Shown piece by piece: positions 10,697 to 47,322 of a DNA stretch of 53,965 bases. The DNA lies in IMG/VR virus record IMGVR_UViG_3300031689_000007, positions 1 to 53,965 of that record; one strand, written 5' to 3'. A model generated the notes under the pieces. The model was not told where the DNA came from. It ran no database searches and saw only the letters and a program-made list of their open reading frames with translations. Every line of letters begins with the position of its first letter. Position 1 is the first letter of the stretch. Position numbers and translations under genes: made by a program. This DNA comes from a virus (taxonomy: Duplodnaviria > Caudoviricetes).

Positions 10697-10917
10697 GTGA
10701 CATCGAATCACCATACGTAAATATAAACAAGGTAGTGGATTACTTTCAAGTGTCCCTATCTACAGTTCGCAAGTGGATATACACAGGTAAAATCCCTGCT
10801 AGTACCTACATACGAGTCAACGATGTTTATCGGTTTCGGCTCGACGAAGTAGAAGCGGCACTAGCTTCTGAAACCAATAAGGCTCATAAAGAAGCCTCAA
10901 AAACAAAAGGAGAGTAG
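10693..10917 (+). CDS. Excisionase-like helix-turn-helix DNA-binding protein
   Basis: VVDYFQVSLSTVRKWI..GKIP...YRF pattern. Confidence 0.8.
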   Translation: MSDIESPYVNINKVVDYFQVSLSTVRKWIYTGKIPASTYIRVNDVYRFRLDEVEAALASETNKAHKEASKTKGE

Positions 10918-18500: not shown

Positions 18501-21500
18501 CTGGAAGCTGGTTCAGTTCTGTTATACATCATGTCACTTGCCATATCCACATACTCGGCACGTTTGCTTGGTGATACAGCCTCAACTGAACTCTTAGCAA
18601 CATCCATACTGCCCTCTGGAGTTGACGTAGCCAACAATATCGCTGGAGCGGCCCGTGTGTCTGGGGATGGGGTGAGCATGCCGTTAATGATACGATCTAC
18701 TTCATCAAGTGCAGACTCTGGAGATTTTGGTTTTAAACCTACCAGCTTACGAACGATACGTCTAACCGCACCTGTGAACTTCTCCCAGCCTGACATCTTA
18801 CCGCCGTCTACCCGGGTAAGCGACAAGGCGCTTTGGAACTCAGGGTTACTAAAGGCTTCAGCAACAAACTCATCAAGGTTAGCTGTACCGTACACTTCTC
18901 CAAACTGTTCCCGAACTGCGTTAAACAATGTATTCAACTGCTTAATTTCAGGTAGTTTCGGGTTTGCCAAGGATGCTGAAGTAGCCGCGTGAGTCATCTC
19001 ATGCAGAATAGTATGTACGTTCATACCATTAGTAGCGTCTATAGATATTGTGTTAGTCTCAGGCTCAAACAACCCAGCAGCTTTGCGTCCCATCATTGTA
19101 GATAGATCGTCAACCACCTGCACCTGTGTAGTGCCAGCGACTTCGGCTAACTTACCCGCGATCTGACGGACACGAGGTACTGAGCTTGTAGTGGCTATAG
19201 CATTTAGAACAAATGGTAAGTCGTTCCGTTGTAAAGCGTTACGAATACTTGGGAGCAACGATTGATCTAGCCCATGCACGGGGTCAACAAGTAAGAAACC
19301 CAAACCTCTTGAGTACACGTACCCGTCATACAGACCCATAATTTCTTCGCCTGATATAACTGATTTAGCTTCAGGGTCGTAAACTATAGTTGTAGTTTGT
19401 GGTAGGACGGTTGATACTTTATTGTTCTGCCGTAGTTTAAGACCCGTACCGATAAGATACGATTCAAACGCAGTGCGACCTCTAATCGGTGTAGTTACGC
19501 GGAACAGTTCTGTACCCGACTTTAACTTCGTTGTTTTAACGTCTTTAGCCATAGAACTGTCCGGTGCAAGACGTTCGTTTAGTAGTTCGTTTGCGGCTTT
19601 TAAACGTTCTGCTTCTGCGTATTCTTTTGCAGCTTTGGCTTGTTGTTTTTTCTGGTAGTTATTATCCTTACGGATTATTTCGTTTATGTTTCTAGTCCTA
19701 GCACTCATTATAGCATCAACTGCCATAGCTGGTGCAGTATCACGGCTAGCTATACGACGAGCGTTTATCATCTCTAGTATAGCGCCCCTAGACATGTTTT
19801 TTCGAACCCAACGACGTGCTTTCATAGCTTCAGGCTGTGTAATACCGTTGTAAAAAGCAAACTGAGCAGGGGTAAAGTCCTTTTCAATGTTCTGCGTAAA
19901 CCCGACTGAGCTAACAGCCACGGCACCGATTTCGGCGAGCGCGTCAACAGGTCTGCGGAATCGTTTAAAGAAATTCTTGGCCGCTAGAGCTGATACATCG
20001 TTTTTAAGATCAGCATCCGATATGTTAAGTAACTCGACAATACCTTCTTTGTCTACCGCAGTAGTAACTTCAGGTGCGGACTCCAAATCAATTTGTGTAT
20101 CATGGTACTCTTGAGCTTGAGCTGAACGGCGTCCATCTTCGAATAAAGCGTTAAGTTTTACTTCAGCTTCTTGATTACGGGTATCTTCAGCGGCTTGTAG
20201 TTGTGCTTGTGTCTTTGGATTGCCTTGAAATCTGCGGGGCGGTTTAAGAATTGGATCACCAAGAGGTTCGAGAGTTTGCTTGTTAGTAGGCACTGTGGCA
20301 AATGGCGGTATTCGTTTTTGGGTCAGTGTGCCATCTTGTACCAGCGGTACAGGCGGCTCCGTTACTGTAGCGTCAACTTGTTTAGTAAGGTCTTCAACAG
20401 CTTGTTCTTCGTCAGCTTGCCCCAGCGGTACAGGCGGCTCCGTTACTGTAGCGTCAACTTGTTTAGTAAGGTCTTCAACAGCTTGTTCTGCTTCAACATC
20501 TTGTTCTTCGTTAACATCTTGTTCTTCGTTAACAACAGGAGCTTGCGCCTGTGCAAGTTTTGCTTCCGCTAGAATATCGTTAACCCCTTCTGGGCCCATG
20601 TCTAGAAGTCTAGAAACACTTGCGTTTGCTGTTATAGGGCTTAAAGAATCCCCCTCTGTTATAAGCCCTGCGTCAACAAGGGCTTTTATTCCTGACGGTG
20701 TCACTAACCCCGCCCCGCCAGCGTCACGTAATTTCTGCGCTTTAATTAAAACTTCTTGGACACGAGCAATATCTATTGTAGGCACAACAGGAGCTTGTTC
20801 TGCTCCAACAGCTTGTTCTTCGTTACCAACAGGAGCTTGTTCTGGAGTTTCATCTATTGTAGGCACAACAGTAGCTTGCACCTGTGCAGCGGCTTGTTCT
20901 GCAGCTATATCTTCTAACAACTTCGTTACTTTATCCTTTGTTTCTTTGGGAGCACTGGATTCATCTTTGAACCTCTCTAGTTGTTTTATTACTTTAGGGT
21001 CAGTAATGGGTAGGCCAACTATATCCCTCGGTTTAGCCGTACGTAAAGGCGACTTGTCACTAATACCTAAATCGTCAAGTAGCTTGGTAGTTATAACAGT
21101 AGGTGTAGTGACGGGTGTCACTCCTAAAAGTTTGTCTGCTTCTGCTTCTATTGCGGCTTGAGCTTCTTGTTCTGGAGTTTCATCTATTGTAGGCACAACA
21201 GGGTTTTTAGGTATTCTATCCCCACGTTCGCCTAGTCCTGTAGCACGTATGCCACCACCGAGTAGAGCTCCTGCAATAGCGGCTTCACGGTACTCTGCAA
21301 TAGCCTCGTCGCTGTCTATAGATAAGCCAGCTTGTGATCGCTCCAGCATTTGCTGGCCAACTTCAGTCAAACCCTCGGTGGTACCACCAGCACCTGCACG
21401 AGAAGTTGTACGAGTAAGTAACCCTTTCCAACCTGTTTTACTAGAACCTAGTGGTTTTAATAGTCTAAACCCACCGAATAACACCCTATCCGCAACACCT

Positions 21501-22162
21501 TCAAGTGCAGCTTGGCCGAAAGTAGCAGTCAACGCATCGCCTACATCGACTCTGTCTTTTGCACCGCTAGCGACTTCGTCTTCTTGACGTTGAATGTTGT
21601 TACCAAACAGAATCGGCGCGGTTACAGCGGCGGCGGCACTTGCACCTATGATGAATGGCGCGGCGACACCTGTAGCGCCCGCTATAACAGGGGCAGCGAG
21701 GGCAGCCCCAAGACCAAGACCTAACTGTGGGATTTGCTCACCTACAACTTCACCTGCATATGTTAACGCCGACCCAATACTATTAACGTCGGTAGACTGC
21801 ATACGCTCAGGTTGTACAAGAGATAGTAGCCCTCGTTCTTGACGGCCACGTTCTTCTACACCTGTACCGTACTCTTCGAGAAATCCAAGCCCAGTCTGCT
21901 CTCCGATAGTTCCGATTGTCTCGCCAAAGGCTTCTTTAACTTGTTTTCTACCCCTTGCAAGGCTACGACCTACTGCAGTGCCATCGTCAAAAGGTTCAGG
22001 AGCTTCGCCAAATACACTTGTGTATTCTTTGTCTATCCGTGTTCTGTCTTGACCAAGAATCTGAGTTATTTGCGCAAACTCAGTGTTTGAGGGTGCGTTA
22101 CCCGCTATAGTAAACTCGTATAACTGCCCTGTCTGCGGGTCTTCAAAGTTAAAAATGCCCAT
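15539..22162 (-). CDS. Giant internal virion/ejection protein with zincin (HExxH) domain
   Basis: 2207 aa; Gly/Ala hydrophobic N-terminal region; ILHEMTH...DEFVAE; last gene of the structural arm. Confidence 0.8.
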   Translation of the reverse strand: MGIFNFEDPQTGQLYEFTIAGNAPSNTEFAQITQILGQDRTRIDKEYTSVFGEAPEPFDDGTAVGRSLARGRKQVKEAFGETIGTIGEQTGLGFLEEYGTGVEERGRQERGLLSLVQPERMQSTDVNSIGSALTYAGEVVGEQIPQLGLGLGAALAAPVIAGATGVAAPFIIGASAAAAVTAPILFGNNIQRQEDEVASGAKDRVDVGDALTATFGQAALEGVADRVLFGGFRLLKPLGSSKTGWKGLLTRTTSRAGAGGTTEGLTEVGQQMLERSQAGLSIDSDEAIAEYREAAIAGALLGGGIRATGLGERGDRIPKNPVVPTIDETPEQEAQAAIEAEADKLLGVTPVTTPTVITTKLLDDLGISDKSPLRTAKPRDIVGLPITDPKVIKQLERFKDESSAPKETKDKVTKLLEDIAAEQAAAQVQATVVPTIDETPEQAPVGNEEQAVGAEQAPVVPTIDIARVQEVLIKAQKLRDAGGAGLVTPSGIKALVDAGLITEGDSLSPITANASVSRLLDMGPEGVNDILAEAKLAQAQAPVVNEEQDVNEEQDVEAEQAVEDLTKQVDATVTEPPVPLGQADEEQAVEDLTKQVDATVTEPPVPLVQDGTLTQKRIPPFATVPTNKQTLEPLGDPILKPPRRFQGNPKTQAQLQAAEDTRNQEAEVKLNALFEDGRRSAQAQEYHDTQIDLESAPEVTTAVDKEGIVELLNISDADLKNDVSALAAKNFFKRFRRPVDALAEIGAVAVSSVGFTQNIEKDFTPAQFAFYNGITQPEAMKARRWVRKNMSRGAILEMINARRIASRDTAPAMAVDAIMSARTRNINEIIRKDNNYQKKQQAKAAKEYAEAERLKAANELLNERLAPDSSMAKDVKTTKLKSGTELFRVTTPIRGRTAFESYLIGTGLKLRQNNKVSTVLPQTTTIVYDPEAKSVISGEEIMGLYDGYVYSRGLGFLLVDPVHGLDQSLLPSIRNALQRNDLPFVLNAIATTSSVPRVRQIAGKLAEVAGTTQVQVVDDLSTMMGRKAAGLFEPETNTISIDATNGMNVHTILHEMTHAATSASLANPKLPEIKQLNTLFNAVREQFGEVYGTANLDEFVAEAFSNPEFQSALSLTRVDGGKMSGWEKFTGAVRRIVRKLVGLKPKSPESALDEVDRIINGMLTPSPDTRAAPAILLATSTPEGSMDVAKSSVEAVSPSKRAEYVDMASDMMYNRTEPASRGIKNIILGSLDSRILADIAKKKIPYAPELNILIRKMSGAMRARNDALDAMTNNYVSWTRKNKAATKIMNNLIPKSTALRVDPSKPRSYYSSYRAAYSDIIAKKSVVKEFKSEQARTAWVENFNKNHEEAKTTKAKNMKDPDQKDLVAYDALRKQYKAMGKEGQAFYRQMRNFFQDTYDEILPALRARLEASIADPKTRATAFEKLSDILMKESGIIKPYFPLMRKGKHRLQYDFIDENGQREMAVEYYQNRRQLDKAFKLAEQNIAVDVAAGKLEASVKPVYTRADQNMDFKAVPSSSFVYEILQTMELSRNNFKDPKSYNDAVQSVVDLALDAMPERSFMQGFRRRKDVRGYIGDKTPTKIGDTEFDAVTMMKEKGRDLNRQIVQIQAAAEIEKFRNKLKEDNFLTNPETADIARKLDQIAAFAQKPNVPRWSQVANGVGFNMTMGMNFSSAAITFFDVAMSAMPFISAEYGVGKTAAAYGEATRLIMNAPKTRGIMVSGPDNKPIEQEVKMGIIGKSSFNYTFEQLPPAMQKIRADILFGMAADQGQSNQSMVQESLEIGRDAPLEGINRWTSGMFHHSERVNRETTLTASYALEVRKLQAEGKQLTDQDYRDAAQKAIETTEFTLGSTAAAGRPVWAQTGVGNVLFLFKRFAIAKYYMMYKLGHDSIGPTNVAKIMQDMGVTEAEAQQIRKDRKLARVGLRNFLISTGVMAGAGGMPMMGTFGVIYNMLRDDDEDDFESALRKFTGEGIYGGLANELLGIDVANRISLNSLLYRPPLVEKDQSPLWTFAEQIGGPVLGITLSGLRGGGEARQGFVDGDMQAVRRGVETVVPAAIRNFLKGIRFYNEGATTRRGDPITEDINAYNAAMQALGFAPQAYIQQLEFNKNARRREEAVSSVRTKLLRRRNMALRNGDREGVQEADRLISKYNEGLPRGAEKSRIGTKAKERSQRSFERTTSNMTGGMTYTPFMQSVVEDYDKGFQGF
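20341..20489. repeat. About 68-bp exact direct repeat, period 81 nt (EEQAVEDLTKQVDATVTEPPVPL-type unit x2)
   Basis: Copies start at 20341 and 20422. Confidence 0.9.
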
Positions 22163-24220
22163 TTACCCTACCTTAGTTAAATCATTGCGAATGACCCCAT
22201 CAGAACTGCTACCGGAACCAAACATACCCATACTAAGTTCATATCTATCTACTAACTGTCTTAGTGCGTTTTGGGCCTTAGTTAGTTTGCGTGAAGCGGT
22301 AGTTTTTTCGATCGTAGTTTTTGCATTAGCAAGAGCGTCTTGTGCGCTGTCAATTTGTTTTTGGTAAAAGCTCAACGCGGCAGCAGCAGGTGCTTTTATA
22401 CCCGACGTCTTCTTGTTAGCAGCTGCTATACGGGCATCGGTAAGTTTTTCGTCTGACGCTATCTTACGTTCGGCTAAATCAGTTTTCTTAGAGTTTGCGT
22501 AGGCCGCAAGGCCAGCCGATCCTGCTTTAGCAAAATCACCGGTACCCATCAGCGTGAGGCCAGCTTGCGCTAAAGCCAACCACTTATCTTGGTTCATATT
22601 TTGTGCAGTAGACTTAAAGGTTTGTTTAGCATCACCACCGCCTTCACCACCGCCTTCGCCACCTGCCGGTAAAATCTTTTTCTTAGATGCAACACTTGCA
22701 AGCCCAGATTTGTTAATCATACTAGCTTCACGCAGTCTTGCAGGCTCGGCTTCGGCTTTGGCTTTGGCTTCGGCTTCGGCTTTGGCTTTGGCTTGATTTG
22801 TCTCGTAGAGGAACTTATTAAACGCCACAGCTGGGTCTTCTGCACCAAACGTTGTCTTAACAGCGTTGTCTAACCGTTGTACAAAGCCGGGCCCAGTAAG
22901 GGACTGTCCCATAACTACATCTTCGTCCATAGCGTCGCCCGCTATACGTTTAGCATTTTTAGCTCTAGCAAAAGCTTCTTGTTCTTTAATGTCGTTCGCT
23001 ATACCACGTTCTATCGAAAGCCGATTAGAATACTCCGCGAACATTTCAGCTTCGTTTGTAGTGTCATCGTCATTTTCATACTTTTCACGTAAGGATAACG
23101 GACTGTTAGCTTGTATAAAATTACCCTTGTCATCAAGGATATCAGTATAGATTTGTCCCGGTGGAGTGTACGTATCACTTTGTTGGAACTCTCGACTACG
23201 GTCAAGCATGTTTGTAATAGCAGGTATACCACCTTCATTGTAGTAACCTCCTGCTAAGTACGCCTGCCTAGCTTGTTCAGCTGCTTGTTCAGATAGAGAT
23301 GTGTAAGAGTTAGGCATACTTTGCTCCTGTGCCCTGCGCAGCTCTTCCGCACGTATAGCCTCTTTACTTTTAGTTTTGCGTTGGAAGCCCGCTGATCCTT
23401 GAGCGTTGGGGTCAGCAGTACCATCAGCAAGAGCATCAGCAGATACATTAGGTGCAGTCTCCACAACAGAACCCTCTGCAAAGATAGGATCATTTGCATC
23501 GTATCCTCTTAGGTTACGCTGCGTCTCGGCGCGTTGTGCAAAATCATAGTCTTCGCCGAAATTCATTGCATCCATGTCCGCTTGTTTACCAAGCTCCCGA
23601 TTGGTTGGGTCAGTAAACCATTTCTTTAATATATCATTACTGCGTTCTAATTCTAACTCCTCCAATCCGGTCTTCTCCGGAGTCGTGATTTTTGTTTGAA
23701 AAGCCGCATCACCATTCGGATTTAATCTTGTTTCGTATTGCGACCCCAAAGCCAGCGCCATCTGAGCAAGCATTTCTGGGTCATTTTTGTACTGTTCGTA
23801 TATGTGTGGGTAATTTACACTTAAATTGTACACATCCTCCGACATCTTACCACCGGGAGCTAGGCGCATGATGCCACCACCAGCCATACGTTGAGGTTGG
23901 TTAGGTTGTGCAGGAAGTCCCGCTGCTTGTACGTTTGGCACACCAGTATTCTGTGTCATATCAGTTTTAGGTGCCAAAGATTGTGCAACTTGAGCGATGC
24001 CTTGCTGTGGTACGCCCGCTGCGGATACAGCTTCTTGTGCAACAGTAGGCTGCATAAGCCCCTCTTGTTTCTGTGCATCAGCTCTAATACGCTTCCGACG
24101 TTCGATCTCACCCAGTACCATGAACTGAGGCGCAGAACCCGAAGGCCGCTGCATTTCTTGTATTAACTGGCCTTCAGAGAAATTCTTTAGTTTGTCTTGG
24201 GTGTCGATCATATTAAGCAT
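22163..24220 (-). CDS. Internal virion (ejection) protein
   Basis: 685 aa, Q/A-rich; ALAQAGLTLM segment; located in the ejection module. Confidence 0.7.
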   Translation of the reverse strand: MLNMIDTQDKLKNFSEGQLIQEMQRPSGSAPQFMVLGEIERRKRIRADAQKQEGLMQPTVAQEAVSAAGVPQQGIAQVAQSLAPKTDMTQNTGVPNVQAAGLPAQPNQPQRMAGGGIMRLAPGGKMSEDVYNLSVNYPHIYEQYKNDPEMLAQMALALGSQYETRLNPNGDAAFQTKITTPEKTGLEELELERSNDILKKWFTDPTNRELGKQADMDAMNFGEDYDFAQRAETQRNLRGYDANDPIFAEGSVVETAPNVSADALADGTADPNAQGSAGFQRKTKSKEAIRAEELRRAQEQSMPNSYTSLSEQAAEQARQAYLAGGYYNEGGIPAITNMLDRSREFQQSDTYTPPGQIYTDILDDKGNFIQANSPLSLREKYENDDDTTNEAEMFAEYSNRLSIERGIANDIKEQEAFARAKNAKRIAGDAMDEDVVMGQSLTGPGFVQRLDNAVKTTFGAEDPAVAFNKFLYETNQAKAKAEAEAKAKAEAEPARLREASMINKSGLASVASKKKILPAGGEGGGEGGGDAKQTFKSTAQNMNQDKWLALAQAGLTLMGTGDFAKAGSAGLAAYANSKKTDLAERKIASDEKLTDARIAAANKKTSGIKAPAAAALSFYQKQIDSAQDALANAKTTIEKTTASRKLTKAQNALRQLVDRYELSMGMFGSGSSSDGVIRNDLTKVG

Positions 24221-25263
24221 TAGCCGAAAGCCTTATATAGTGATAATCCAGAAAGACCGGCACCAACCGCTTGTTGGAACGCGCCGGGCTGCTGCGTCTG
24301 AGCAGTTTGAGTACCTGTTTGAGTACCTGTCGCAGCAATAGGCATACCCGATAGAATACCGGTCATGTTGCCGATCTGCTCGCGAGTGTAACCTTGTTGC
24401 TCAAGGTAGTTTGAATAGTCTAAATCGAGCCCTGCTTGACCTTCAGCTTGTCGAGCTTGACCAACACCTTCAAGTAGCTGTGTGTCTTGTATATCTGTCT
24501 GACGTTCTAACTGACCCAGACGAGAAAGCTCTGCACCCATCCCTGTACCGGCTCTAAGTGCTGCAAGTCCTTGACCCGCACCGAATTGATCTGAGGCTTC
24601 GGCACCAGTCTGTACCCGTCCAAGTTCAGCGGCACGGCGTTGCTCTGCAGTCATTTGAGCAGCTCTATCGGCACCGAATTGTTTCGACGCCGCTGCAAAT
24701 GCGCCCTGTGATCCTTTAGCTTGAATGCCTGCTAGTTGGCCCAAGAGCTGTTCTTCTGCGAGCCCTTGCTGCACCGCTTGTCGTGACCCACCGAATGCAC
24801 CAGCATTAACTGCTTTAGTATCGCGAGCGCCTTGAAGCCGGTTAAAGTCTGTAACTGCTGATTCTTTTTGTTGGTCAGTTACTAACTGCTGATACGGGGA
24901 CATGTACTGAGATACTGCATCGCCAGTAAACATAGTTGGATCAGAGTAACCAAACTGTGAATAATTGTCAGCATTATAGTTACCAAGCTCGTTGGCTCGG
25001 TCCATACCTGCAGTGGCATTGTTTTGCGCAGTTTCCAGTCCGGGAATGCCAGAACCTACAATACCTTCAACCATTTCACGTGACTGAGTCACATTTGGAT
25101 CAGTACCCGCTAGGCGTTCGCCTCTATAGGGGTCGTAAGGTTTACCAAACTCAGCTTCGGCCCGTGCAATATTCCGCTCAAAATAAGGCTTTGCCCATGC
25201 TGGCAAGTCGTTCTGTCGCGAACTTGTACTTGTATTTTCTACTGTTTTGCTGCCACCACACAT
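24220..25263 (-). CDS. DNA-transfer/pilot-like virion protein
   Basis: YMSPYQQ.V and AGAFGGSR motifs; glycine-zipper C-terminus; begins MCGG. Confidence 0.75.
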   Translation of the reverse strand: MCGGSKTVENTSTSSRQNDLPAWAKPYFERNIARAEAEFGKPYDPYRGERLAGTDPNVTQSREMVEGIVGSGIPGLETAQNNATAGMDRANELGNYNADNYSQFGYSDPTMFTGDAVSQYMSPYQQLVTDQQKESAVTDFNRLQGARDTKAVNAGAFGGSRQAVQQGLAEEQLLGQLAGIQAKGSQGAFAAASKQFGADRAAQMTAEQRRAAELGRVQTGAEASDQFGAGQGLAALRAGTGMGAELSRLGQLERQTDIQDTQLLEGVGQARQAEGQAGLDLDYSNYLEQQGYTREQIGNMTGILSGMPIAATGTQTGTQTAQTQQPGAFQQAVGAGLSGLSLYKAFG

Positions 25264-25274
25264 AGGTTAGCTCC

Positions 25275-26903
25275 TTATGCTGTCTTTGCCATGTACTCGC
25301 GCACTACACGTGGCGCATCGTTTTCGGCTTCGTTTATAGTGTCGAGGAACCCGCCACCGTATTTTTTCTCAAGTGCGTCTGCAGTCTTCTTGCGAAGCAC
25401 AAACTCTCCGTCTGCAAGTAACACATCCTGCTGGCCTTCAAGAGATGCAGGTACTTTATCATCAACACCCGAACCATCGCCCGGACCGTTGACTTCACCA
25501 GCTTCGCCGTTGGCGAAACGTTCTACTGTGTCGTCTAGCTCACCAGACTTCACTTTCTCGACTAGGTCTCTAAGAGCTTCTTCGCCGTAGTTAGCTAGGA
25601 ACTGACCCAACACGATGGATGCTTGTTCTTCAGACATATCACCTTTTACAGCACTAACTGCATCTGCGATCATATCTTTTTCGTTGCCACCTTCTGATGG
25701 AGCTACTTCAAGCTCACCGCCTTCAGCAAAGTTCGCAGCCCCCTGCATCTTTGCAAGGCCGGGATAGAGCTGGTCACCACCAAAGGGTATAATGTTGAAT
25801 GGGAAAGGGCTTCCATCAATCGACGTTAAATCTACTGGCATCTGCGTCGGCGGCCGCCGACTGTCGCTCGCGAACGGGAGGTCTGAGATTCCGCCACCAT
25901 TAAATGTATACCGTTCTTTCATGTTGACTTCTTCTAGGAAATTATCCTTCTTTTGCTCAAAGCCAGAATCGCCGTATTCACCCTCTAGGTAGTTACCGTA
26001 CTGCTGTAAAGGCTCGCTATAGCTAGGGGCGTCCGGCCCAAAGTTACCTATAGATAAAGGCCTGCCTATACCACCACCACGCTTGGTCATATACCCACCC
26101 ATAGCCATCGGAGCGGGGCGCATCTTGTAAGCAAGTAACTGTTCATAGCTTGGGTTAATTAGGAATCTAGATGACATAGGGTCACTAGGGTCGTAGTCAG
26201 GGTTTGGAACCGACTCAAACGCACCTAACGCAGCTTGCTTAGACATATCAGACGCTCCTGCAATTCCCGGACCACCTGAGTCCTTACCTTCTGGCACCCT
26301 AACTGTCGGCGCAGGGGCCCCGTTAAAGTTAAAGTCAGAATTGCCGCCCCCTACCCTACTTTCATTTTCTTCTGCTGTAGATATTTTCCTATCTGGGTCA
26401 ATACCTAACCTATCTTCATATGCCTGAGCAGCTCTTTCTTCTGGACTGCCAGAGTTTGGACCAGAAAACAGATTTTTAAGACTTGTGCCAAACGAATTTT
26501 TCTCTCCACCGGTGTCGGTGCTTAGACCACTAGAAGCCGCCTCCTGTGCACTGTTCCCTACTACTCCACCGATAAGCCCGGGAAGCCCACCAGTCAACGC
26601 GCCAAAAATACCTGACTGAACTAGACGGTCATTGTATTGTTTAGTCTCGTTAGAGGGTATATTAAACGTACCTCCTTGGCCGTCAGACACTTGTACGTTC
26701 GTAACACCGGAGTTTGACCCCGGAGCGACAGCTTGGCCGTAGGTATCTCGCTTGTTTTGCATTGTCAGGACGCCATCTCTATACTCAAACCCGTCGCCGC
26801 CAGTAAGAAGATTAGCTAAACCTTCTGTAAAACTGTTGCCAGAGCCTTTTTTCTTGTTATTATCTTCGCTATCCGCGCTTCCTAAATCACCACCACCACA
26901 CAT
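25275..26903 (-). CDS. Internal virion protein
   Basis: Begins MCGG; Gly-rich; C-terminal GPGDG..DDKVPA...LADGEFV motif. Confidence 0.7.
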   Translation of the reverse strand: MCGGGDLGSADSEDNNKKKGSGNSFTEGLANLLTGGDGFEYRDGVLTMQNKRDTYGQAVAPGSNSGVTNVQVSDGQGGTFNIPSNETKQYNDRLVQSGIFGALTGGLPGLIGGVVGNSAQEAASSGLSTDTGGEKNSFGTSLKNLFSGPNSGSPEERAAQAYEDRLGIDPDRKISTAEENESRVGGGNSDFNFNGAPAPTVRVPEGKDSGGPGIAGASDMSKQAALGAFESVPNPDYDPSDPMSSRFLINPSYEQLLAYKMRPAPMAMGGYMTKRGGGIGRPLSIGNFGPDAPSYSEPLQQYGNYLEGEYGDSGFEQKKDNFLEEVNMKERYTFNGGGISDLPFASDSRRPPTQMPVDLTSIDGSPFPFNIIPFGGDQLYPGLAKMQGAANFAEGGELEVAPSEGGNEKDMIADAVSAVKGDMSEEQASIVLGQFLANYGEEALRDLVEKVKSGELDDTVERFANGEAGEVNGPGDGSGVDDKVPASLEGQQDVLLADGEFVLRKKTADALEKKYGGGFLDTINEAENDAPRVVREYMAKTA

Positions 26904-26932
26904 ATAAAGACTCCTATTCTAAACTTGTTGCG

Positions 26933-27391
26933 CTATTCTACTACACGTTGCTTATAATTTCCACCCACAACATCATATCCTAGTTTTTGTAACATTGCGC
27001 CGGTTTTGTCAGCGCTTAGACCACTAGAAATCCCCATGTATATCTCTGCAGCGTTACGTTCTTTTGCCCATTTTTCGAAGGCTCGTAGCAACTGCAGTCC
27101 AACACGAGAACCCCTGCTTTGTGCAGATACATACCACACTGTGTCGGACGCTATCAAGTCAGTACCGAAATAATGCTCCCCTATAGACCCGAGAAGGATA
27201 CTATTAAGCTCACCATCAAAAGTGCCCACGTAGGCAAAGCGCGTATCTGGGTTGGTCATAAAGTCATATATTAACCGCCCACACTTGTTTGGGTCATAAT
27301 TAAAATGCTGATAGACACTCTCTTGGTGCATCTGGAAACCAAGGTCGATAGCTCCCGGCAAGTCTTTTGGTTCTATAGGGCGTATAGGCAT
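26933..27391 (-). CDS. GNAT-family acetyltransferase
   Basis: IRP..PKD, WYVSAQSRGSRVG..LL acyl-CoA-binding motif, KLGY. Confidence 0.85.
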   Translation of the reverse strand: MPIRPIEPKDLPGAIDLGFQMHQESVYQHFNYDPNKCGRLIYDFMTNPDTRFAYVGTFDGELNSILLGSIGEHYFGTDLIASDTVWYVSAQSRGSRVGLQLLRAFEKWAKERNAAEIYMGISSGLSADKTGAMLQKLGYDVVGGNYKQRVVE

Positions 27392-27392
27392 C

Positions 27393-27908
27393 TTAGTCTA
27401 GCATCTCCAAAGCTTGTTCTAACGTTTCTTTGTTACGCCTAGTCCAGCCTCGTCCAAAGGTTTCAAAGGTCTTTAAACTCTTGTAGAAGTCCTGACGTAC
27501 ATCGTGAACATACTCAATAATAAATTTAGGGTCTTTTTCCATGACCAGTGCAAGTGTAGCGGGGCCAATGGCTCCGTCTTGCGTAGCGCCCACTGCTCGT
27601 TGCACAGCCTTTGCAGGTCTACCTGAACCGGAATTTACGGCCCAATCAAAGCAGGCCCAGTCTAATCCAGAACTAAGTAAATCTCCTTTAACCCGGTCCC
27701 AGTAGTTTTTCTTGTATATCGGCCCTACATCATCCGGTGTTAGGTCACGCATTTCTTGTTCAGTAGATTCCCGCTCAATCCACTCGTCGTACACCTTTTT
27801 AGTGACTCCCAAATTTGTGATACCTCCGGGATCATCTGGATGATTTACAAATCCCCCTTCGTGTTTCAACAACATTTTTAAACACTTATCAAAGTTTTCT
27901 GCGCTCAT
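27393..27908 (-). CDS. Endolysin, glycoside hydrolase 108 with peptidoglycan-binding region
   Basis: HEGGFVNHPDDPGGITNLGVT, DGAIGPAT, FGRGWTRR. Confidence 0.93.
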   Translation of the reverse strand: MSAENFDKCLKMLLKHEGGFVNHPDDPGGITNLGVTKKVYDEWIERESTEQEMRDLTPDDVGPIYKKNYWDRVKGDLLSSGLDWACFDWAVNSGSGRPAKAVQRAVGATQDGAIGPATLALVMEKDPKFIIEYVHDVRQDFYKSLKTFETFGRGWTRRNKETLEQALEMLD

Positions 27909-28258
27909 TTTTTGCTCCCAAAGAATTTACTTACGCCACGCATACCAATGCTCGCACTAACTATACCGCCAAGACTATACTGGTACCAATCAGGCATAAC
28001 TTCTAGTGCCACAAAACCACGTTGCACGATGTCATTACCCCAATCCCCACAGAACGCCAAAATAAGGGGAATACTGAACAAAAGTGTAATCCATTCATCC
28101 TTCCAACTATTCTGTGTAGCTTTCATAGCTTCGATATCCCAGTCTATTTCACCTGTAGCTATCTTCATCTTAGTTTCGGCTTCTGCTTTCTTTACAACAG
28201 TCTTTCCGTCGATAAATGCTGTAGCTAATCCTGCTACACTATTAATAATACCTAGCAT
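27905..28258 (-). CDS. Putative holin
   Basis: SWKDEW, two hydrophobic segments, P.WYQY; adjacent to endolysin. Confidence 0.7.
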   Translation of the reverse strand: MLGIINSVAGLATAFIDGKTVVKKAEAETKMKIATGEIDWDIEAMKATQNSWKDEWITLLFSIPLILAFCGDWGNDIVQRGFVALEVMPDWYQYSLGGIVSASIGMRGVSKFFGSKK

Positions 28259-28575
28259 TATGAATCACCCTTTTTCTTAATATTAGTAAAGCCAAAGAAC
28301 GCACCTACTATTGCACTAACAGATATGAAATACACACCGGCAATAGATTTTAATCCCTCAGTAGCTTCAGTTAATCCAGCTATGGCTGTAATGATAATTG
28401 CAAAGGGGTATATAAGCATACCAACCAGAGCAAACCACACCATCTTTCGTTGCTGATCGCGCTTCGAGTCTTCATCTTCAATTTGTCTGCGTTTGTCATC
28501 AAGTAACAATGCGTCCCACTCACTCTTCTCGATTGAGCCGCTTTTGTCTTTATCTATATCTTCAAACTTTGTCAT
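28258..28575 (-). CDS. Two-TM membrane protein with N-terminal EF-hand-like loop
   Basis: DKDKSGSIEKSE followed by two hydrophobic helices. Confidence 0.7.
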   Translation of the reverse strand: MTKFEDIDKDKSGSIEKSEWDALLLDDKRRQIEDEDSKRDQQRKMVWFALVGMLIYPFAIIITAIAGLTEATEGLKSIAGVYFISVSAIVGAFFGFTNIKKKGDS

Positions 28576-28584
28576 GTTATTCCC

Positions 28585-29085
28585 CTAATCTGCCAAAGGG
28601 TTATCTAAAGCCCTCTGCAATTTACTCATTAATCTGTCTTCTAACTCTTTCATATCGGAGTTTTGTGAAGTTCTAACACGTTCTCTCTGATTTTCAAAGC
28701 GAACTTCTGCTGCATCTATCATAGCTCGTATCTTGTCTTCGCTTTCACGAACCATATCTTCAATACGATCTGTCTGTTGTTCAATTCGAAGTATGTCGTC
28801 TTTTAAACCATTTTTAATGTCTCGTGTGTATTCAACACTTTCTTCTACTTTGTCAGATATGCCACTTATCTTAGCGTCAGAAACATCCATTTGCTGTTGA
28901 TACTCACCAAGGTCTAACCCTGCAACCGCCTCAATCTTTTGGTATAGGACGAAGCCACCATACAGCCCACCAACCACGCTTGATATAAATGCAAGTATAG
29001 CCATGATTGATCCAAACGACATCTTAACACCGGCAGCTTTAAACTCACGATCTTCAAGTTCACCAACTGTTGTTAAATCCACCAT
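28585..29085 (-). CDS. Membrane-anchored coiled-coil protein
   Basis: One TM near the N-terminus, heptad-rich remainder, ends LDNPLAD. Confidence 0.7.
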   Translation of the reverse strand: MVDLTTVGELEDREFKAAGVKMSFGSIMAILAFISSVVGGLYGGFVLYQKIEAVAGLDLGEYQQQMDVSDAKISGISDKVEESVEYTRDIKNGLKDDILRIEQQTDRIEDMVRESEDKIRAMIDAAEVRFENQRERVRTSQNSDMKELEDRLMSKLQRALDNPLAD

Positions 29086-29483
29086 TAGTTTTCAAAGTCC
29101 ATTTCACCGTCCGCTTGTTGTAGGTTTTTTAGCGCTTCAAGTTCGTCTCGTAGCTTCTGTACTTCTAACCTACGCTTAGTTAATTCTATTTGGTAAAGAT
29201 CATCACAGTTTATACGTGAACGTGGTTTGTCCAACGGAATAACTATACGAGCATACACACCTATGTCTTTACCACGACTGCTTGTATCCAACCCAGAAAG
29301 TACCCCTGTCACACCATACTCAAGGTTTACGCCTCCGCCCACTGCGTTACTGCACCGTAGATTGCCCGACGAGAACGAGTCAGATTGATAGTTCATCGGT
29401 GGGTTTGGCAGGGATAAGGATAGCGAACTACTATCCGCAGTAGCAGAACTAGCCACAACACAAAGAGCGAGAGCTAGTCTCAT
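29085..29483 (-). CDS. Exported protein (signal peptide, beta-rich, coiled-coil tail)
   Basis: MRLALALCVVASSATA signal; ATGA overlap with the upstream gene. Confidence 0.7.
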   Translation of the reverse strand: MRLALALCVVASSATADSSSLSLSLPNPPMNYQSDSFSSGNLRCSNAVGGGVNLEYGVTGVLSGLDTSSRGKDIGVYARIVIPLDKPRSRINCDDLYQIELTKRRLEVQKLRDELEALKNLQQADGEMDFEN

Positions 29484-29866
29484 GCAGGCTTTCCATCTAA
29501 CCGTGAACATATCCTAGAAGAAATAAGTGTGCTTGATACTAACGACTTCTTAACTTTCGAAGTAGTGCAGAGATACACCGCTTCGGGTAAATCGTATTTA
29601 CGGATGTATACATCAAACGCTTTATGTTCTTTGTAACCTACCTTTATAATCCTGTACGTTGTAGAGAAGGGAATGTTTGTCCAGTTTAAATCAAACAACT
29701 CAATTTGATAATACTTGATTTCTTCCCTAGAGTTAAATAGAGACATCTCCACTTTAACCACATCCTTGACGTGTGAAAGCTTTATCACAGGGTACGCAGG
29801 TGTCATCTCATGCCCCGATAGAGCTGTTGCCCAAAGCAGAAACGCTATGATGATGCTACTTCGCAA
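29480..29866 (-). CDS. Exported protein, possibly pilus-chaperone/Ig-like
   Basis: TTG start 29866 gives signal MRSSIIIAFLLWATALSG then HEMTP; LFN motif; C-terminal Cys pair. Confidence 0.6.
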   Translation of the reverse strand: MRSSIIIAFLLWATALSGHEMTPAYPVIKLSHVKDVVKVEMSLFNSREEIKYYQIELFDLNWTNIPFSTTYRIIKVGYKEHKAFDVYIRKYDLPEAVYLCTTSKVKKSLVSSTLISSRICSRLDGKPA

Positions 29867-30344
29867 TGCAACTAGCCAACACAACAGCCGTGTATGTGCC
29901 TCCCGGCAATGGTTTTGCCGAACCGTATATGGCACTTGAAGCAGTGCTGAACCACGTTGACCCGGCAAGTGTCAGGTTGAATATAGTGCTATTACCTACC
30001 ACTGTCTTAGCGGCATTGTAGGCTGACATACCCGCAACAGATGTCTGTGTAACTGCTGTACTACCAGTCCAAGCAACTGTATCAGAAAGTGTAGGAGAAG
30101 AACTGAAGGCTGTGGGGTGTGTTATATTAGCTGTGTAAGCATCAGCAATAGAAACATCGTACCGAACGATAGGCAGTACACCACCATCCGCAGGTGTTGT
30201 ACTTAACTTACTTGCTATTGGGTTGCCGTAAACACCGGATTTATTTGTTTGGATAACACATTTAGCTTCTACACTGCCTGTGATTTCTACATTTGCTAGC
30301 GCAGGAAAAGCACAAAGCGAAAGTACCACAATAAAATATTTCAT
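29856..30344 (-). CDS. Exported pilin/fimbrial-subunit-like protein
   Basis: Signal ending ALA; ITGSVEAKCVI at the N-terminus; PGGTYTAVV near the C-terminus; GAGG SD before ATG 30344. Confidence 0.6.
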   Translation of the reverse strand: MKYFIVVLSLCAFPALANVEITGSVEAKCVIQTNKSGVYGNPIASKLSTTPADGGVLPIVRYDVSIADAYTANITHPTAFSSSPTLSDTVAWTGSTAVTQTSVAGMSAYNAAKTVVGNSTIFNLTLAGSTWFSTASSAIYGSAKPLPGGTYTAVVLASCIAK

Positions 30345-30352
30345 ATTAAACC

Positions 30353-31225
30353 TCATTTGTTGTATTGCATATTAACCATTTTCTCATGCAAAATTTGTTG
30401 CGCCAAATTATTACGCAAGGCTTTCTTATTATCAGGCAATTTAGAATCAACCAATCCAGCAACATCTTCATATGCGCCGCCGTTAATAGACGCATTATAA
30501 TACATATTAATGTTTGTTTGTCGATTGATAGCCATAATAATATCAGATTGTCCCTGCGCTTTAAATAAAGTCAAAGCGTTGGCAGACGCAATTAACCCCA
30601 TCTCTAACCTAGTTTCTTTTTCTTCCACTTCTTCTTCAAGTATAAGATCACCATTTTCATCATACTTAAATTCTGTGTCTTCGTCTATAGCACCCAAAAC
30701 TGCTTCGTCTTCTAGCGCATCATAGATTTCTACTACGGGGATAACAGGAATAGGTTTGACATACCCCGGACATGCAGGGTTAGACTGTTCATCGTAACAC
30801 TCGTCTACTCGGTAACTATATATAACAAAAGCGTCTGACACACTGCCTTTACCTTCAACAGCAATTGAACCGTTGCCCCACTTAGAAGCGGCTACGTTAG
30901 CTAGAGGGAAAGACTTAACGATTGTGTTTCCGGGAACCCCTGACCAATCATCCGTTTCACTGAACGTGTATCCGTCACCTTTTGCATTTAGATTACGGAT
31001 GTGAACTTTCATGTCATCTTCTGGGTTTTTAACCGCGGTGTATCTGTATAGAAGGCCGTTTATATCTAAGCCCGGAATAGACGGCAGAACAGACCCCATA
31101 CTCCAGCTCAGTGCTGTGGACGCCGCGTTCCCTGATACCCCATAACTGTAGGGATCACATTGCGAGTAAGAAGGCCAAAGTGCCAAGAATAACACTAAGC
31201 CCCGTTTTAGTTTCAATGTTTTCAT
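30353..31225 (-). CDS. Exported protein (beta-rich N-terminus, CYDEQSNPACPGY, acidic stalk)
   Basis: Signal-like N-terminus; 290 aa. Confidence 0.65.
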   Translation of the reverse strand: MKTLKLKRGLVLFLALWPSYSQCDPYSYGVSGNAASTALSWSMGSVLPSIPGLDINGLLYRYTAVKNPEDDMKVHIRNLNAKGDGYTFSETDDWSGVPGNTIVKSFPLANVAASKWGNGSIAVEGKGSVSDAFVIYSYRVDECYDEQSNPACPGYVKPIPVIPVVEIYDALEDEAVLGAIDEDTEFKYDENGDLILEEEVEEKETRLEMGLIASANALTLFKAQGQSDIIMAINRQTNINMYYNASINGGAYEDVAGLVDSKLPDNKKALRNNLAQQILHEKMVNMQYNK

Positions 31226-31703
31226 TGAACAGCTTCCTCATCGGGTTGTTTTGTTCGTATTCAATTTCGTCGATTTCGGCTTGCATTTCCCAAGCTATCC
31301 TAGCCTTATCTCCCACCAATCCATCCTTGGGGCAGGGAGTTCCAGCATTCATCATCGCGTCAAACACACGTTCGTCCTGACACATTACGGACACGGCTGC
31401 CACTTTCATGCCCATGTCGTACATAGTCTTAGCGTTCTTTAGTTTTTCACAATTCATATCACGTACAGTACGACCTGCCGATATGCCTAGTATCTGTGTC
31501 TGAACTGCACCAGCCACACCGACAGTACACAGGTCAGAATTACTTGCGCTAATCTGAGGTGATATGGCTGATGGTGGTGGACTATTAATAGTTGTATCCA
31601 TTTTACCATCAGATATTACTGTAGTCTCAGTCTTGATTGTCTCATCGGCAAACGCAAAACTACCACTCAATAGGAGTAATGCTATTACAAATAAACGTGT
31701 CAT
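31155..31703 (-). CDS. Exported Cys-containing protein with C-terminal membrane anchor
   Basis: Signal ending AFA; SAISP, DLC, NCE, MCQD, TPCP; hydrophobic C-terminus. Confidence 0.75.
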   Translation of the reverse strand: MTRLFVIALLLLSGSFAFADETIKTETTVISDGKMDTTINSPPPSAISPQISASNSDLCTVGVAGAVQTQILGISAGRTVRDMNCEKLKNAKTMYDMGMKVAAVSVMCQDERVFDAMMNAGTPCPKDGLVGDKARIAWEMQAEIDEIEYEQNNPMRKLFNENIETKTGLSVILGTLAFLLAM

Positions 31704-46893: not shown

Positions 46894-47322
46894 TTACCGC
46901 GAACTACGCTTAGTTTTAGTCATAGGCATCCGCGGGTCAGACTCACGCATATAGTTTCTATCAACAGCCTCGGCCTGATTTTGTGCAGACTCAAGCTGAC
47001 CATAGATGCGGTCATCTCTTAGTTCGGTCGGGATAGCGCAAAGCAATAACCCACCAACTTCGATATTGTCTTTAAAACGAGAATCAATATCTGACATGAT
47101 GTGTAGCTCAGGATAATCCTCTGCCTTTACAGGCACATAGCCATCACGAAACCGTCCAGAGACGTTTGTCATATCTGCATTACCCAATGTAGCTGTGCGA
47201 ATCCAGCGGAACGAAAGTCCGTCACGTGGTTCGGGGGTAGGTAGCATAGACGAGCGTTTCCAAGGTTTACGACGTTCTCCCGCTTCGCGGGTTTCGGTTG
47301 TACGAGGTTTTCTATCAGCCAT
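46894..47322 (-). CDS. Head-module protein
   Basis: FRWIR, GYVPV, VGGLLLC motifs. Confidence 0.75.
   Translation of the reverse strand: MADRKPRTTETREAGERRKPWKRSSMLPTPEPRDGLSFRWIRTATLGNADMTNVSGRFRDGYVPVKAEDYPELHIMSDIDSRFKDNIEVGGLLLCAIPTELRDDRIYGQLESAQNQAEAVDRNYMRESDPRMPMTKTKRSSR

Follow-up and report, generated by a model that had tools for sequence, protein, structure and literature searches.

In other phages, canonical i-spanin/o-spanin pairs breach the outer membrane, and T7 keeps its spanins between the holin and TerL. A different task falls to T5 Llp, one of the phage exclusion lipoproteins, which, for FhuA, keeps progeny from sticking to debris. Besides two-component spanins (lambda Rz/Rz1 and T7 gp18.5/18.7, as catalogued by Kongari et al. 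2018, PMC6139136), there are unimolecular spanins, such as T1 gp11 and those of the cobaviruses; in these roseophages, genes for internal virion proteins and a GNAT come after those for spanin and endolysin, going by the gene order in Bischoff et al. 2019 (PMC6775973). Pelagimyophages and the methylophage Melnitz encode the curli proteins CsgG/CsgF, for which Buchholz et al. 2022 (PMC9004378) propose a part in lysis control. Chaperone-usher pili (Fim, Pap, Caf1/Saf, and the archaic Csu with its SCPU-domain subunits) offer a further comparison for small secreted beta-rich proteins encoded by adjacent, overlapping genes.

Here we describe a block of seven overlapping minus-strand genes (g1-g7, 28258-31703) in an abundant, uncultured ocean phage; no publications on these genes were found in the literature. 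In the window (the whole stretch of 53,965 nucleotides that was analysed, IMG/VR record IMGVR_UViG_3300031689_000007), the block has a virion gene on one side and a putative holin and a GH108 endolysin on the other. It is best explained as an exported envelope module, predicted to belong to the lysis region of the phage and not to its virion; we tentatively read this cassette, at somewhat less than even confidence, as a non-canonical, spanin-like trans-envelope lysis module.

31155-31703, minus strand: g1, exported Cys-rich protein of 182 aa
31329..31535, minus strand: conserved core of g1, with C59, C85, C108 and C124
31155..31225, minus strand: out-of-frame overlap of g1 and g2, coding for the g1 hydrophobic tail and the g2 signal peptide
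30353-31225, minus strand: g2, exported protein of 290 aa
29856-30344, minus strand: g3, exported, beta-prone protein of 162 aa, called pilin-like in an earlier note on this DNA
29480-29866, minus strand: g4, exported, beta-prone protein of 128 aa with a TTG start, called chaperone-like in the earlier note
29085-29510, minus strand: g5, exported protein of 141 aa, with a beta-prone part and a C-terminal helix
28585-29085, minus strand: g6, helical/coiled-coil membrane protein of 166 aa
28594..28602, minus strand: N-P-L at the C-terminus of g6; N and P are invariant, and one of 13 diverse members has M in place of L
28258-28575, minus strand: g7, protein of 105 aa with an EF-hand-like loop and two TM segments
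27905-28258, minus strand: putative holin, matching phrog_2524 (function unknown) and labelled holin from its position only
27393-27908, minus strand: endolysin with GH108 and PG_binding_3 domains (E 1.1e-29), phrog_315

The genes are as tightly packed as had been claimed: g1 and g2 overlap by 71 nt, g3 and g4 by 11 nt, g5 and g6 by 1 nt, and g7 and the next gene by 1 nt, and the gaps at g2/g3 and g6/g7 measure merely 8-9 nt. The g4/g5 overlap is 31 nt, or 4 nt with an ATG start at 29483, which is probably the true start of g5 and overlaps the g4 stop as ATGA. The 620-aa neighbour of the cassette, called a tail nozzle in the earlier note, has phrog_3287 ('virion structural protein') as its sole match.

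Because the cassette has tail genes to one side and genes for internal/ejection proteins to the other, its products might themselves be virion or ejection proteins, in which case their hydrophobic N-termini would be membrane-insertion segments and not signal peptides. Several lines of evidence make this highly improbable. In our own rule-based scan, signal-peptide scores for g1-g5 are 3.4-5.8, and only two of the other 51 genes examined give any score at all (2.41 and 1.96); the chance that five chosen genes of 56 stand consecutively is p = 1.4e-5. The N-termini show n-h-c organisation, and those of relatives are still hydrophobic with an AxA-like site at the end, while their sequence drifts. 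All five exported proteins carry invariant cysteines in even number (four in g1, two each in g2, g3, g4 and g5), and g6 and g7 have none. Moreover, the module travels among podo-, myo- and T5-like backbones. The earlier claim of five consecutive products with signal peptides is therefore borne out, as is the claim that the last two are membrane proteins: in g6, helix-prone sequence comes after a single hydrophobic segment at the N-terminus, and g7 has two TM segments. Action in the host envelope, and not in the virion, is well supported by the conserved signal peptides, the paired invariant cysteines and the co-conservation of the genes.

This co-conservation, which had been proposed as a check on the cassette, is evident in IMG/VR, where all six genes g1-g6 occur in the same order in 55 of 79 loci; the other 24 comprise 23 that are cut by contig ends and one without detectable g6. 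The inter-gene overlaps are conserved across loci (for g1 and g2, 39 of 62 loci have -71 nt, and the others listed range from -50 to -80 nt), and the module, found in differing backbones, is better conserved than its flanks. Judged from these comparisons of sequence, g1-g6 is a mobile module and a join of two units, each of which also occurs alone. Phages of SAR11 and roseobacters, among others, carry unit A (g1, g2 and g6, often with g7), and T5-like vibriophages carry unit B (g3, g4 and g5). The hosts of carriers span different classes (Vibrio, SAR11, Rhodobacteraceae), and one bacterial bin carries the cassette. Within unit B, g3 matches phrog_25895, the family of Vibrio phage Brizo gp138, and g5, which has a beta-prone part with two invariant Cys and an amphipathic helix of about 30 aa at its C-terminus, matches phrog_37374, the family of Brizo gp140, with relatives in 180 Vibrio phage records. 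In g4, an invariant H-E-x-T-P-x-Y-P motif directly behind the predicted cleavage site, present in at least 593 IMG/VR stretches, accompanies the two invariant Cys.

Superinfection exclusion, adhesion and a spanin-replacing lysis step had each been suggested as the function of the cassette; the lysis step is favoured because, in several phage lineages, the module or one of its sub-units adjoins holin and endolysin genes that belong to several unrelated families. Among 34 de-replicated contexts downstream of g6 (33 were scanned, and one, L048, has opposite-strand ORFs only), an endolysin of phrog_315, 181 or 7 lies within five ORFs in 20, a holin only in one more, and no recognised endolysin or holin family was found downstream in 13. 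The gene between g6 and the endolysin belongs to the membrane family phrog_2524 or, in relatives, instead to phrog_3427 (GTA_holin_3TM, E 1.2e-23) or phrog_6637, and the families of this holin slot and of the endolysin are exchanged in mosaic fashion. Where unit A occurs alone, an M15 peptidase lies directly behind the g6-like gene (HTVC023P), an amidase and a holin-like gene precede the unit, which begins three genes on (HTVC033P), a phrog_6637-type protein is encoded directly upstream (Mosig; 47% identity, E 1e-50), or the unit is followed downstream by a holin-like gene (E 1e-24) and a lysozyme (MW202481) or by a GH19 'chitinase' (MW202675). No lysis gene was seen close to unit A in CRP-810 (its GH108 gene is about 25 kb distant), HTVC115P or RSP15. 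In T5-like vibriophages, g3, g4 and g5 are followed by an overlapping gene for a 67-aa lipoprotein, one further gene, a holin (phrog_860) and an M15 endolysin.

The likeness to two-component spanins of the kind listed by Kongari et al. centres on g6, which is situated in the lysis region; its N-terminal TM segment leads into a helical/coiled-coil domain, whose length varies by indels, and N-P-L stands at the C-terminus. This predicted architecture, an anchor with a helical periplasmic arm, is i-spanin-like. In a T7-like pelagiphage (AP013540), unit A stands between a holin-like gene and TerL, as do the spanins of T7 (holin-like, g1, g2-like, g6-like, two small genes, TerL). Two roseophages, CRP-207 and CRP-810, add a small lipoprotein to unit A: unannotated ORFs immediately preceding the g1-like genes encode lipoproteins with homology to the g1 core (88% and 93% probability in hhalign, E 3.5e-6 and 4.2e-7). 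Unlike two-component spanins, however, the window has no o-spanin lipoprotein (a lipobox is absent from every coding-strand ORF in a scan that recovers all four control lipoproteins), there would be three to six exported partners in place of one, and the cassette has its own invariant C-terminal NPL and four-Cys partner domain. No sequence relation was found between the cassette proteins and any spanin family.

That partner, g1, begins with a signal peptide (aa 1-19), from which a linker rich in Thr, Ser and Pro leads to the four-Cys core (aa ~57-125); the C-terminus is a hydrophobic tail of 15 aa. An N-terminal export signal with a C-terminal membrane segment recalls the unimolecular spanins as described for T1 gp11 and the cobaviruses, and the window shares with the published cobavirus order the internal virion proteins and GNAT after the lysis genes. 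The signal of g1, by contrast, is of the signal-peptidase-I type without a lipobox, its C-terminal segment has only about 15 aa and is absent from 9 of 14 aligned family members, and there is no sequence similarity. The protein matches phrog_20531 (E 5.7e-14) and at least 8000 metagenomic clusters, none of them named; its core is common to pelagiphages, roseophages, Ralstonia phage RSP15 and the small roseophage lipoproteins. In the product of g2, a beta-prone N-domain with two invariant Cys is joined to a helical C-terminal part by a linker that is first Pro-rich and then acidic, and the last residues are MQY; family searches with this protein gave no match.

The vibriophage pVp-1 counts against the spanin-like reading: it has a g5 relative at 54.7 kb and, as entered in the supplementary material of Kongari et al. 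(PMC6139136), also a canonical separated i-/o-spanin pair at 46911-47573; therefore, unit B is not simply a spanin substitute there. A phage so equipped would accord with superinfection exclusion or receptor masking, in which envelope-located products keep other phages from adsorbing or delivering their DNA, or stop progeny from sticking to debris. Such a role is consistent with exported products and a mobile module, and with a place directly after tail-fibre/virion genes in the window and in vibriophages, a position that fits receptor-related roles as well. As with T5 Llp, a small exported protein coded near receptor-binding genes, the vibriophage unit B closes with a small lipoprotein (47 aa when mature). 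We nevertheless regard exclusion as unlikely, in that the proteins are conserved across differing tail fibres and host classes, which would ill suit a receptor-specific blocker, no terminator-like site was found between the cassette and the late structural/lysis genes, and the window lacks a lipoprotein gene. The Brizo lipoprotein, for its part, has no similarity to the g1 family. To our knowledge, exclusion systems use one or two proteins.

The lysis-gene context would also suit a control of lysis timing, in which g7, with its EF-hand, and the periplasmic proteins would sense the state of the envelope or of ions (e.g., Ca2+ influx) and modulate the holin as antiholins do. The g7 gene is immediately upstream of the putative holin, its stop codon overlapping the next start, the EF-hand-like loop N-terminal to its two TM segments is kept in relatives, and CRP-207 has a g7-like gene behind its g6-like gene. 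The phage CsgG/CsgF genes come from a bacterial surface-assembly system and occur in marine phages with streamlined hosts, and their role in lysis control is, as published, a proposal only; these are different genes, and no CsgG, CsgF or CsgE match was found in the window. Many carriers of the module lack g7 (it occurs at 42 of 79 loci), however, and in two loci (L050 and L052) it stands apart from the rest. Its EF-hand_5 match falls below the Pfam cut-off (E 1.7e-4, 21.3 vs 25.9 bits), and no antiholin family match was found. We know of no antiholin mechanism that needs five secreted proteins, and consider timing control distinctly unlikely.

The earlier note had likened the cassette to a miniature fimbrial system, and the motifs that it quoted for g3 (ITGSVxxxC and GxYT) are indeed conserved. 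Across 23 aligned sequences, I21, G23, V25, C29, G149, Y151 and C159 are invariant, giving a first strand I-x-G-x-V-x-x-x-C, which alternates as V-x-I-x-G-x-V, and a last strand G-x-Y-...-C, both as in chaperone-usher pili. A crude propensity profile marks mature g3 (145 aa) and mature g4 as beta-prone. In hhalign, SCPU pilins align with the first strand of g3, and among the ESM Atlas results a bacterial cluster with an SCPU label ranks 23rd (score 0.95), SCPU being assigned to 15% of its members. One might envisage an usher-less pair in which g4, as a half-chaperone, caps or chaperones g3 by donor-strand complementation, and g3, as a periplasmic or surface fibre or in a stable heterodimer, does the actual work, whether that serves lysis or not. 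Taken as a whole, this proposal is unlikely: the fimbrial resemblance failed every sequence test. Searches of Pfam, NCBIfam and PDB sequences gave no match for g3, g4 or eight distant g3 relatives, nor was there a Fimbrial, SCPU or PapD_N profile match; hhalign probability is 12% for g3 against SCPU pilins, over the first strand only, and 0.1% for g4 against PapD_N. Mature g4 is one domain of about 110 aa and not two, half the size of a PapD-like chaperone, and, as the note itself stated, no usher gene is present in the window. The invariant N-to-C Cys pair of g3 may bind the first strand to its own last strand, leaving it self-complemented, and 17 of 48 g3 relatives have lipobox-like signals. 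SCPU genes occur in only 5 of 81 sampled genomes from the family of the cassette-carrying bacterial bin, and the cassette genes, unlike those of pili, belong to lytic phages and adjoin lysis genes.

Further points count against the spanin-like lysis reading: six or seven proteins far exceed the one or two of known spanins, and g1 and g6 would both be anchored in the inner membrane, with the link to the outer membrane only proposed. If the reading is correct, the products would assemble, late in infection, a periplasmic complex reaching from the inner membrane (g6 and g1) towards the wall and the outer membrane (the g1 core, g2 and g3-g5). Its inner-membrane protein g6 would extend a helical arm of variable length from an N-terminal anchor to the terminal NPL; g1, secreted, disulfide-bonded and Cys-rich, would in this phage be held in the inner membrane by its C-terminal hydrophobic tail. 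The secreted partners would be g2, with a variable N-domain, acidic linker and helical C-terminus, the two small beta-rich proteins g3 and g4, and the beta-rich g5 with its C-terminal helix; the EF-hand protein g7, with two TM segments, is encoded just ahead of the putative holin. Because this phage has no lipoprotein gene, protein contacts would hold the outer-membrane side in place of a lipid anchor. After the holin and endolysin open the membrane and wall, the complex would perform or assist the last step, the breach of the outer membrane. The likeliest role of the cassette would be to help this phage to breach the host envelope at the end of infection.

The cassette lies in a podovirus-like genome (record completeness estimate 88%) whose gene set includes DNA polymerase, helicase, primase, terminase, portal, capsid, tail fibres and ejection proteins, and for which short stretches of Roseobacter phages CRP-6, CRP-13 and CRP-810 are the nearest DNA matches. 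Its seven genes overlap or are separated by at most 9 nt:

31155-31703, minus strand: g1, exported product
30353-31225, minus strand: g2, exported product
29856-30344, minus strand: g3, exported product, read earlier as a pilin
29480-29866, minus strand: g4, exported product, read earlier as a chaperone
29085-29510, minus strand: g5, exported product
28585-29085, minus strand: g6, membrane protein
28258-28575, minus strand: g7, membrane protein

The cassette is flanked on one side by genes for a 620-aa virion protein (phrog_3287) and a short 83-aa product, and on the other by phrog_2524, a GH108 endolysin and a GNAT. The 71 nt shared by g1 and g2 (window positions 31155-31225) are read in different frames, one giving the hydrophobic tail of g1 (its last 23 codons) and the other the signal peptide of g2 (its first 23 codons). 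Within the scanned stretch of the window there is no terminator-like site inside the cassette, and the sole such site on its strand lies downstream, in the GNAT gene. Four marine metatranscriptome runs, from a kind of library in which DNA can be present, contain short contigs (151-595 nt, 90-99% alike) that touch parts of the endolysin, the putative holin, g7, g6, g3, g2 and g1; the pieces from X1 and X2 are identical, and the contigs speak neither for transcription nor, over stretches they do not reach, against it.

Elsewhere in the window, the lysis genes are followed (24220-27391) by the GNAT acetyltransferase and by 'DNA ejection protein' products of 542 and 347 aa, both starting MCGG. In relatives (L017:7820-8236; HTVC115P gp46-47), the GNAT position is taken by an HlyC-type acyltransferase (Pfam E 5.6e-21) beside proteins of 650-690 aa, an association that hints at acylation of the ejection proteins. 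A 2207-aa protein (15539-22162) weakly matches families of DarB-like antirestriction proteins and of virion structural proteins, and two transmembrane segments are predicted near its residues 149-187.

An earlier note had recognized export signals on five consecutive cassette products, and these are borne out. Using our own rule-based heuristics, which supply all signal-peptide, transmembrane and lipobox calls reported here, strong signal-peptide scores among 56 genes fell only on g1-g5, with two weak scores elsewhere; the chance of five genes among 56 being consecutive is p = 1.4e-5. The N-termini of relatives keep the n-h-c layout and AxA-type sites while their letters change. Invariant cysteines are even in number in all five exported proteins (4, 2, 2, 2 and 2 in g1 to g5) and absent from g6 and g7, as expected of periplasmic, disulfide-bonded proteins. 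We regard it as extremely improbable that the cassette encodes virion parts.

The g1 signal ends in AFA, followed by DE, and has no lipobox; a lipobox-like pattern occurs in 2 of 51 distinct g1 sequences. Its C-terminal hydrophobic tail, present in the window, is missing from 9 of 14 family members, and four cysteines are invariant across the 14 g1-like proteins. The mature N-terminus has a TonB-box-like look, a resemblance on which nothing here rests. Proteins of the g2 type open with a signal peptide and end in a helical C-terminus; in between come a variable N-domain, which two records annotate as 'carbohydrate binding', and a long acidic linker. In g4, the motif H-E-x-T-P-x-Y-P is invariant right behind the predicted cleavage site; an N-terminal histidine brace was considered and ruled out on its single invariant His. 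The last two products are indeed membrane proteins, as had been proposed: g6 has an N-terminal hydrophobic segment (residues ~17-47) and a helix-prone remainder with length indels, and g7 has two predicted transmembrane segments and an EF-hand_5 match (E 1.7e-4; 21.3 bits, below the Pfam cut-off of 25.9) whose D-x-D/N-x-x-G loop is retained among the relatives listed. The C-terminus of g6, Q..LDNPL, is invariant in relatives, and a C-terminal N-P-(L/M) is the sole invariant feature across 13 g6-like proteins.

The same note had likened the cassette to a fimbrial system in which g3 would resemble a pilin and g4 a small Ig-fold chaperone. The motifs singled out in g3 are real and invariant: V19, I21, G23, V25, A27 and C29 alternate, with I21, G23, V25 and C29 invariant, and this strand runs straight into a cysteine that probably pairs with C159 of the last strand. 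The donor strand of a pilin is N-terminal and combines alternating hydrophobic residues with glycine. Profile comparison gives the pilin assignment no support: g3 matches neither Fimbrial PF00419 nor SCPU PF05229, nor any other Pfam family at E <= 0.1; no pilin family appears among 23 g3 members scanned at E <= 10; a PDB profile search was empty; and hhalign with four SCPU proteins, drawn from genomes that share a family with a Rhodobacteraceae-labelled bin carrying the module, aligned the first strand only (23 columns, probability 12%). A language-model search (ESM Atlas) with g3 placed an SCPU-labelled cluster at rank 23, and SCPU genes occur in 5 of the 81 genomes sampled from that bin's family, PapD_N being present in two of the five carriers. 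Both g3 and g4 are beta-rich by a crude propensity profile. A PapD-like chaperone has two Ig domains and about 220 aa, whereas g4 has 128 aa, signal peptide included; it does not match the PapD_N profile and aligned with eight alphaproteobacterial PapD_N domains at an hhalign probability of 0.1%, which leaves the chaperone assignment likewise unsupported. Chaperone-usher systems carry an outer-membrane usher in the operon, but the cassette, as the note had already remarked, has none: none of the 40 window proteins scanned matched an usher-like family, and the largest cassette product has 290 aa. That an usher-less pilin-chaperone assembly is the main point of the cassette is in our judgement distinctly unlikely. 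A pilin/half-chaperone-type pair could nevertheless form part of a lysis machine, and the pilin and lysis readings are compatible.

No significant match to g1-g6 was obtained in Pfam, NCBIfam or PADLOC, PDB-sequence profile searches with alignments of g1, g2 and g4 were as empty as that with g3, and the PHROG families matched (20531, 25895, 37374 and 3999) carry no function. A profile search with g3 of 1.84 billion representatives returned 118 proteins, and eight distant full-length relatives share its layout (signal peptide, early G-x-V-x-x-x-C, terminal G-x-Y-...-C) and match no Pfam family. A DUF7584 lead for g4 (E 0.008) was dropped: it was found in 1 of 28 members, and the family was absent from the 81 genomes searched and from controls. 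The ESM Atlas gave no usable match to g2. Searches of deposited phages by tblastn gave no match to g6 or g4; local comparisons reveal g6-like genes in such phages (E 2.8e-16).

Scanning IMG/VR with g3 yielded 79 loci (45-100% identity), and 55 of them contain g1-g6 complete, in identical order and on one strand; in 23 others, whichever genes are missing lie past the contig end, and a single locus (L046) has no detectable g6. An unpublished genome (G121) underlies none of the claims made here. The genes are thus co-conserved. The g1/g2 overlap is -71 nt in 39 of 62 loci and otherwise -50 to -80, and the g5/g6 overlap is -1 in 42 of 50. The flanks vary: the phrog_3287 gene, upstream in the window, lies downstream of the endolysin in L001, and other loci have a different terminase type or replication genes as neighbours. 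The module also occurs on phage-like contigs of two metagenome bins, one labelled Rhodobacteraceae and one archaeal.

The cassette is composed of two units, each of which also occurs alone in other phages. Unit A (g1, g2 and g6 types, often with g7) is found without unit B (g3, g4 and g5) in the pelagiphages HTVC115P, HTVC033P, HTVC023P, HTVC202P, Baldr and Mosig, the roseophages CRP-207 and CRP-810, uvMED AP013540 and two freshwater viromes, and Ralstonia phage RSP15 has a g1-like domain. Unit B stands alone in T5-like vibriophages, and g5 matches 180 records, all of them cultured Vibrio phages. In VPT02 and Brizo, unit B (phrog_25895, 25455 and 37374) is followed by an overlapping 67-aa lipoprotein gene (lipobox IISGC), a small gene, a T5-type holin and an M15 endolysin. 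In relatives, unit A is regularly accompanied by the very basic phrog_7595 protein (86-108 aa, 23-34 Lys+Arg; for example L071:7821-8081, L050:9521-9829 and L093:4228-4506), which is absent from the window and could be a DNA-binding protein or a membrane-active peptide.

The reading we rate highest, though at somewhat less than an even chance, is that the cassette is a spanin-like trans-envelope lysis module. The sequences show export signals, co-conserved genes, a build from two units, a setting among lysis genes and homology of g1 to lipoproteins; the topology, the complex formation and a role in breaching the outer membrane are inferred. The window order is g6, g7, putative holin and GH108 endolysin, where 'holin', for phrog_2524 and phrog_6637, is a label from position and distant likeness. 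Among 34 contexts downstream of g6, which were de-replicated by DNA and still share ancestry, an endolysin from one of three families lies within five ORFs in 20 and one more has a holin only, making 21 arrangements of the same kind as the window's lysis cluster. The slot from g7 to the endolysin is filled by a membrane protein of one of three families, including GTA_holin_3TM (Pfam E 1.2e-23), and family combinations are shuffled among contexts; in five loci (L016, L021, L024, L025 and L045), an HNH-type endonuclease (phrog_452, E about 1e-48) stands between g7 and the holin. Nine divergent loci have instead phrog_7595, followed by a protein of 68 aa that matches XhlA below threshold and by a 145-170-aa membrane protein; the latter distantly resembles the AP013540 membrane protein upstream of unit A. 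Four loci have neither arrangement. In L082, from the Rhodobacteraceae-labelled bin, a class-3 lipase (10316-11023; Pfam E 3.5e-23) directly follows the g6 homologue.

Where unit A occurs alone, its neighbours include an M15 peptidase in HTVC023P, an amidase together with a holin-like gene whose product matches the window's phrog_2524 protein (E 2e-11) in HTVC033P, a phrog_6637-type protein (E 1e-50) in Mosig, a holin-like gene and lysozyme in MW202481, and a GH19 enzyme in MW202675. The T7-like AP013540 has a holin-like gene behind its tail fibre genes, then g1, g2-like and g6-like genes, and two small genes before TerL; in T7, the holin and spanins occupy the corresponding stretch. CRP-207, HTVC202P and Baldr have unit A ahead of terminase genes. 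In CRP-810, HTVC115P and RSP15, no lysis gene was seen close to unit A or the g1-like domain. Superinfection exclusion or receptor masking by the exported proteins is, in our view, a rather improbable account.

Like the inner-membrane partner of a two-component spanin, g6 has a predicted N-terminal anchor and helix-prone domain and sits within the lysis cluster. However, a two-component spanin has an adjacent, overlapping or embedded o-spanin lipoprotein gene, and none was found embedded in or beside g6 or g7; a relaxed scan of the window, which recovered 4 of 4 control lipoproteins and on which our conclusions rest because a strict version missed known controls, gave no coding-strand lipobox ORF and only three weak antisense ones. 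A unimolecular spanin combines an N-terminal lipoprotein signal with a C-terminal transmembrane segment; g1, by contrast, lacks the former, and most of its relatives lack a hydrophobic tail. Roseobacter cobaviruses, according to Bischoff et al. 2019 (PMC6775973), have a unimolecular spanin and endolysin, then internal virion proteins and GNAT, the same order as in the window. Unannotated small lipoprotein ORFs lie just upstream of the g1-like genes in CRP-207 (L093:1725-1940, lipobox LLAGC) and CRP-810 (L081:3558-3818, lipobox LLSAC), and both are homologous to the g1 cysteine core (hhalign probability 88% and 93%, respectively); the g1 domain is therefore outer-membrane-side in at least some phages. 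The Brizo lipoprotein has no similarity to the g1 family. According to a supplement of Kongari et al. 2018 (PMC6139136), pVp-1 encodes a canonical spanin pair 7 kb from unit B, and possession of both counts against simple substitution; Table 1 of that paper gives 91 of 677 phages in which spanins were not found.

Two side observations concern annotation and variation in these families. The g6-like transmembrane/coiled-coil proteins CRP-810 gp51 and CRP-207 gp73 are annotated 'lysozyme' or 'putative lysozyme', labels that are probably wrong because no enzyme domain is visible by eye. A lipobox-like pattern (e.g., LTGC, LAGC) occurs in the signal region of 17 of 48 distinct g3 sequences, with the downstream AxA kept (e.g., L071, L073 and L055), and some g3 variants may therefore be lipoproteins.

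Our literature searches found no published work on the g1-g7 gene families and no publication explaining how SAR11 phages, and those of many other marine bacteria, pass the outer membrane; the main text of Qin et al. 2022 (PMC9038755) does not contain the terms spanin, holin, endolysin, signal peptide or transmembrane. The nearest printed idea, put forward by Buchholz et al. 2022 (PMC9004378), gives the curli CsgGF genes of pelagimyophages and Melnitz a possible part in regulating lysis; these are different genes from the window cassette. Control of lysis timing by the cassette, which would also fit a place beside holin and endolysin genes, is in our estimate quite unlikely, and the remaining weight goes to some explanation outside those considered here.

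The known kinds of outer-membrane breaching are spanins and a cationic 'disruptin' peptide. A bolder reading, which we offer tentatively and consider unlikely, is that marine phages of SAR11, roseobacters, vibrios and others possess a third kind of machine: a lipoprotein-free multi-protein trans-envelope complex in which coiled-coil inner-membrane g6 would dock via its NPL end on disulfide-locked g1, and a borrowed pilin/half-chaperone-type g3-g4 pair would, with g5, give contact with the outer membrane or wall.

A g1 profile search gave at least 8000 matches at E <= 0.001, none of them named among the 120 matches listed, and at least 593 IMG/VR stretches carry the g4 motif; these families rank with the most common unnamed phage genes of the ocean. 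Should the lysis reading fail, a seven-protein envelope assembly would still call for explanation. If it is true, the cultured phages CRP-207, CRP-810, HTVC023P and the Brizo/pVp-1 group offer handles on the module, and its genes would be candidates for the missing outer-membrane step in some of Earth's most abundant viruses.
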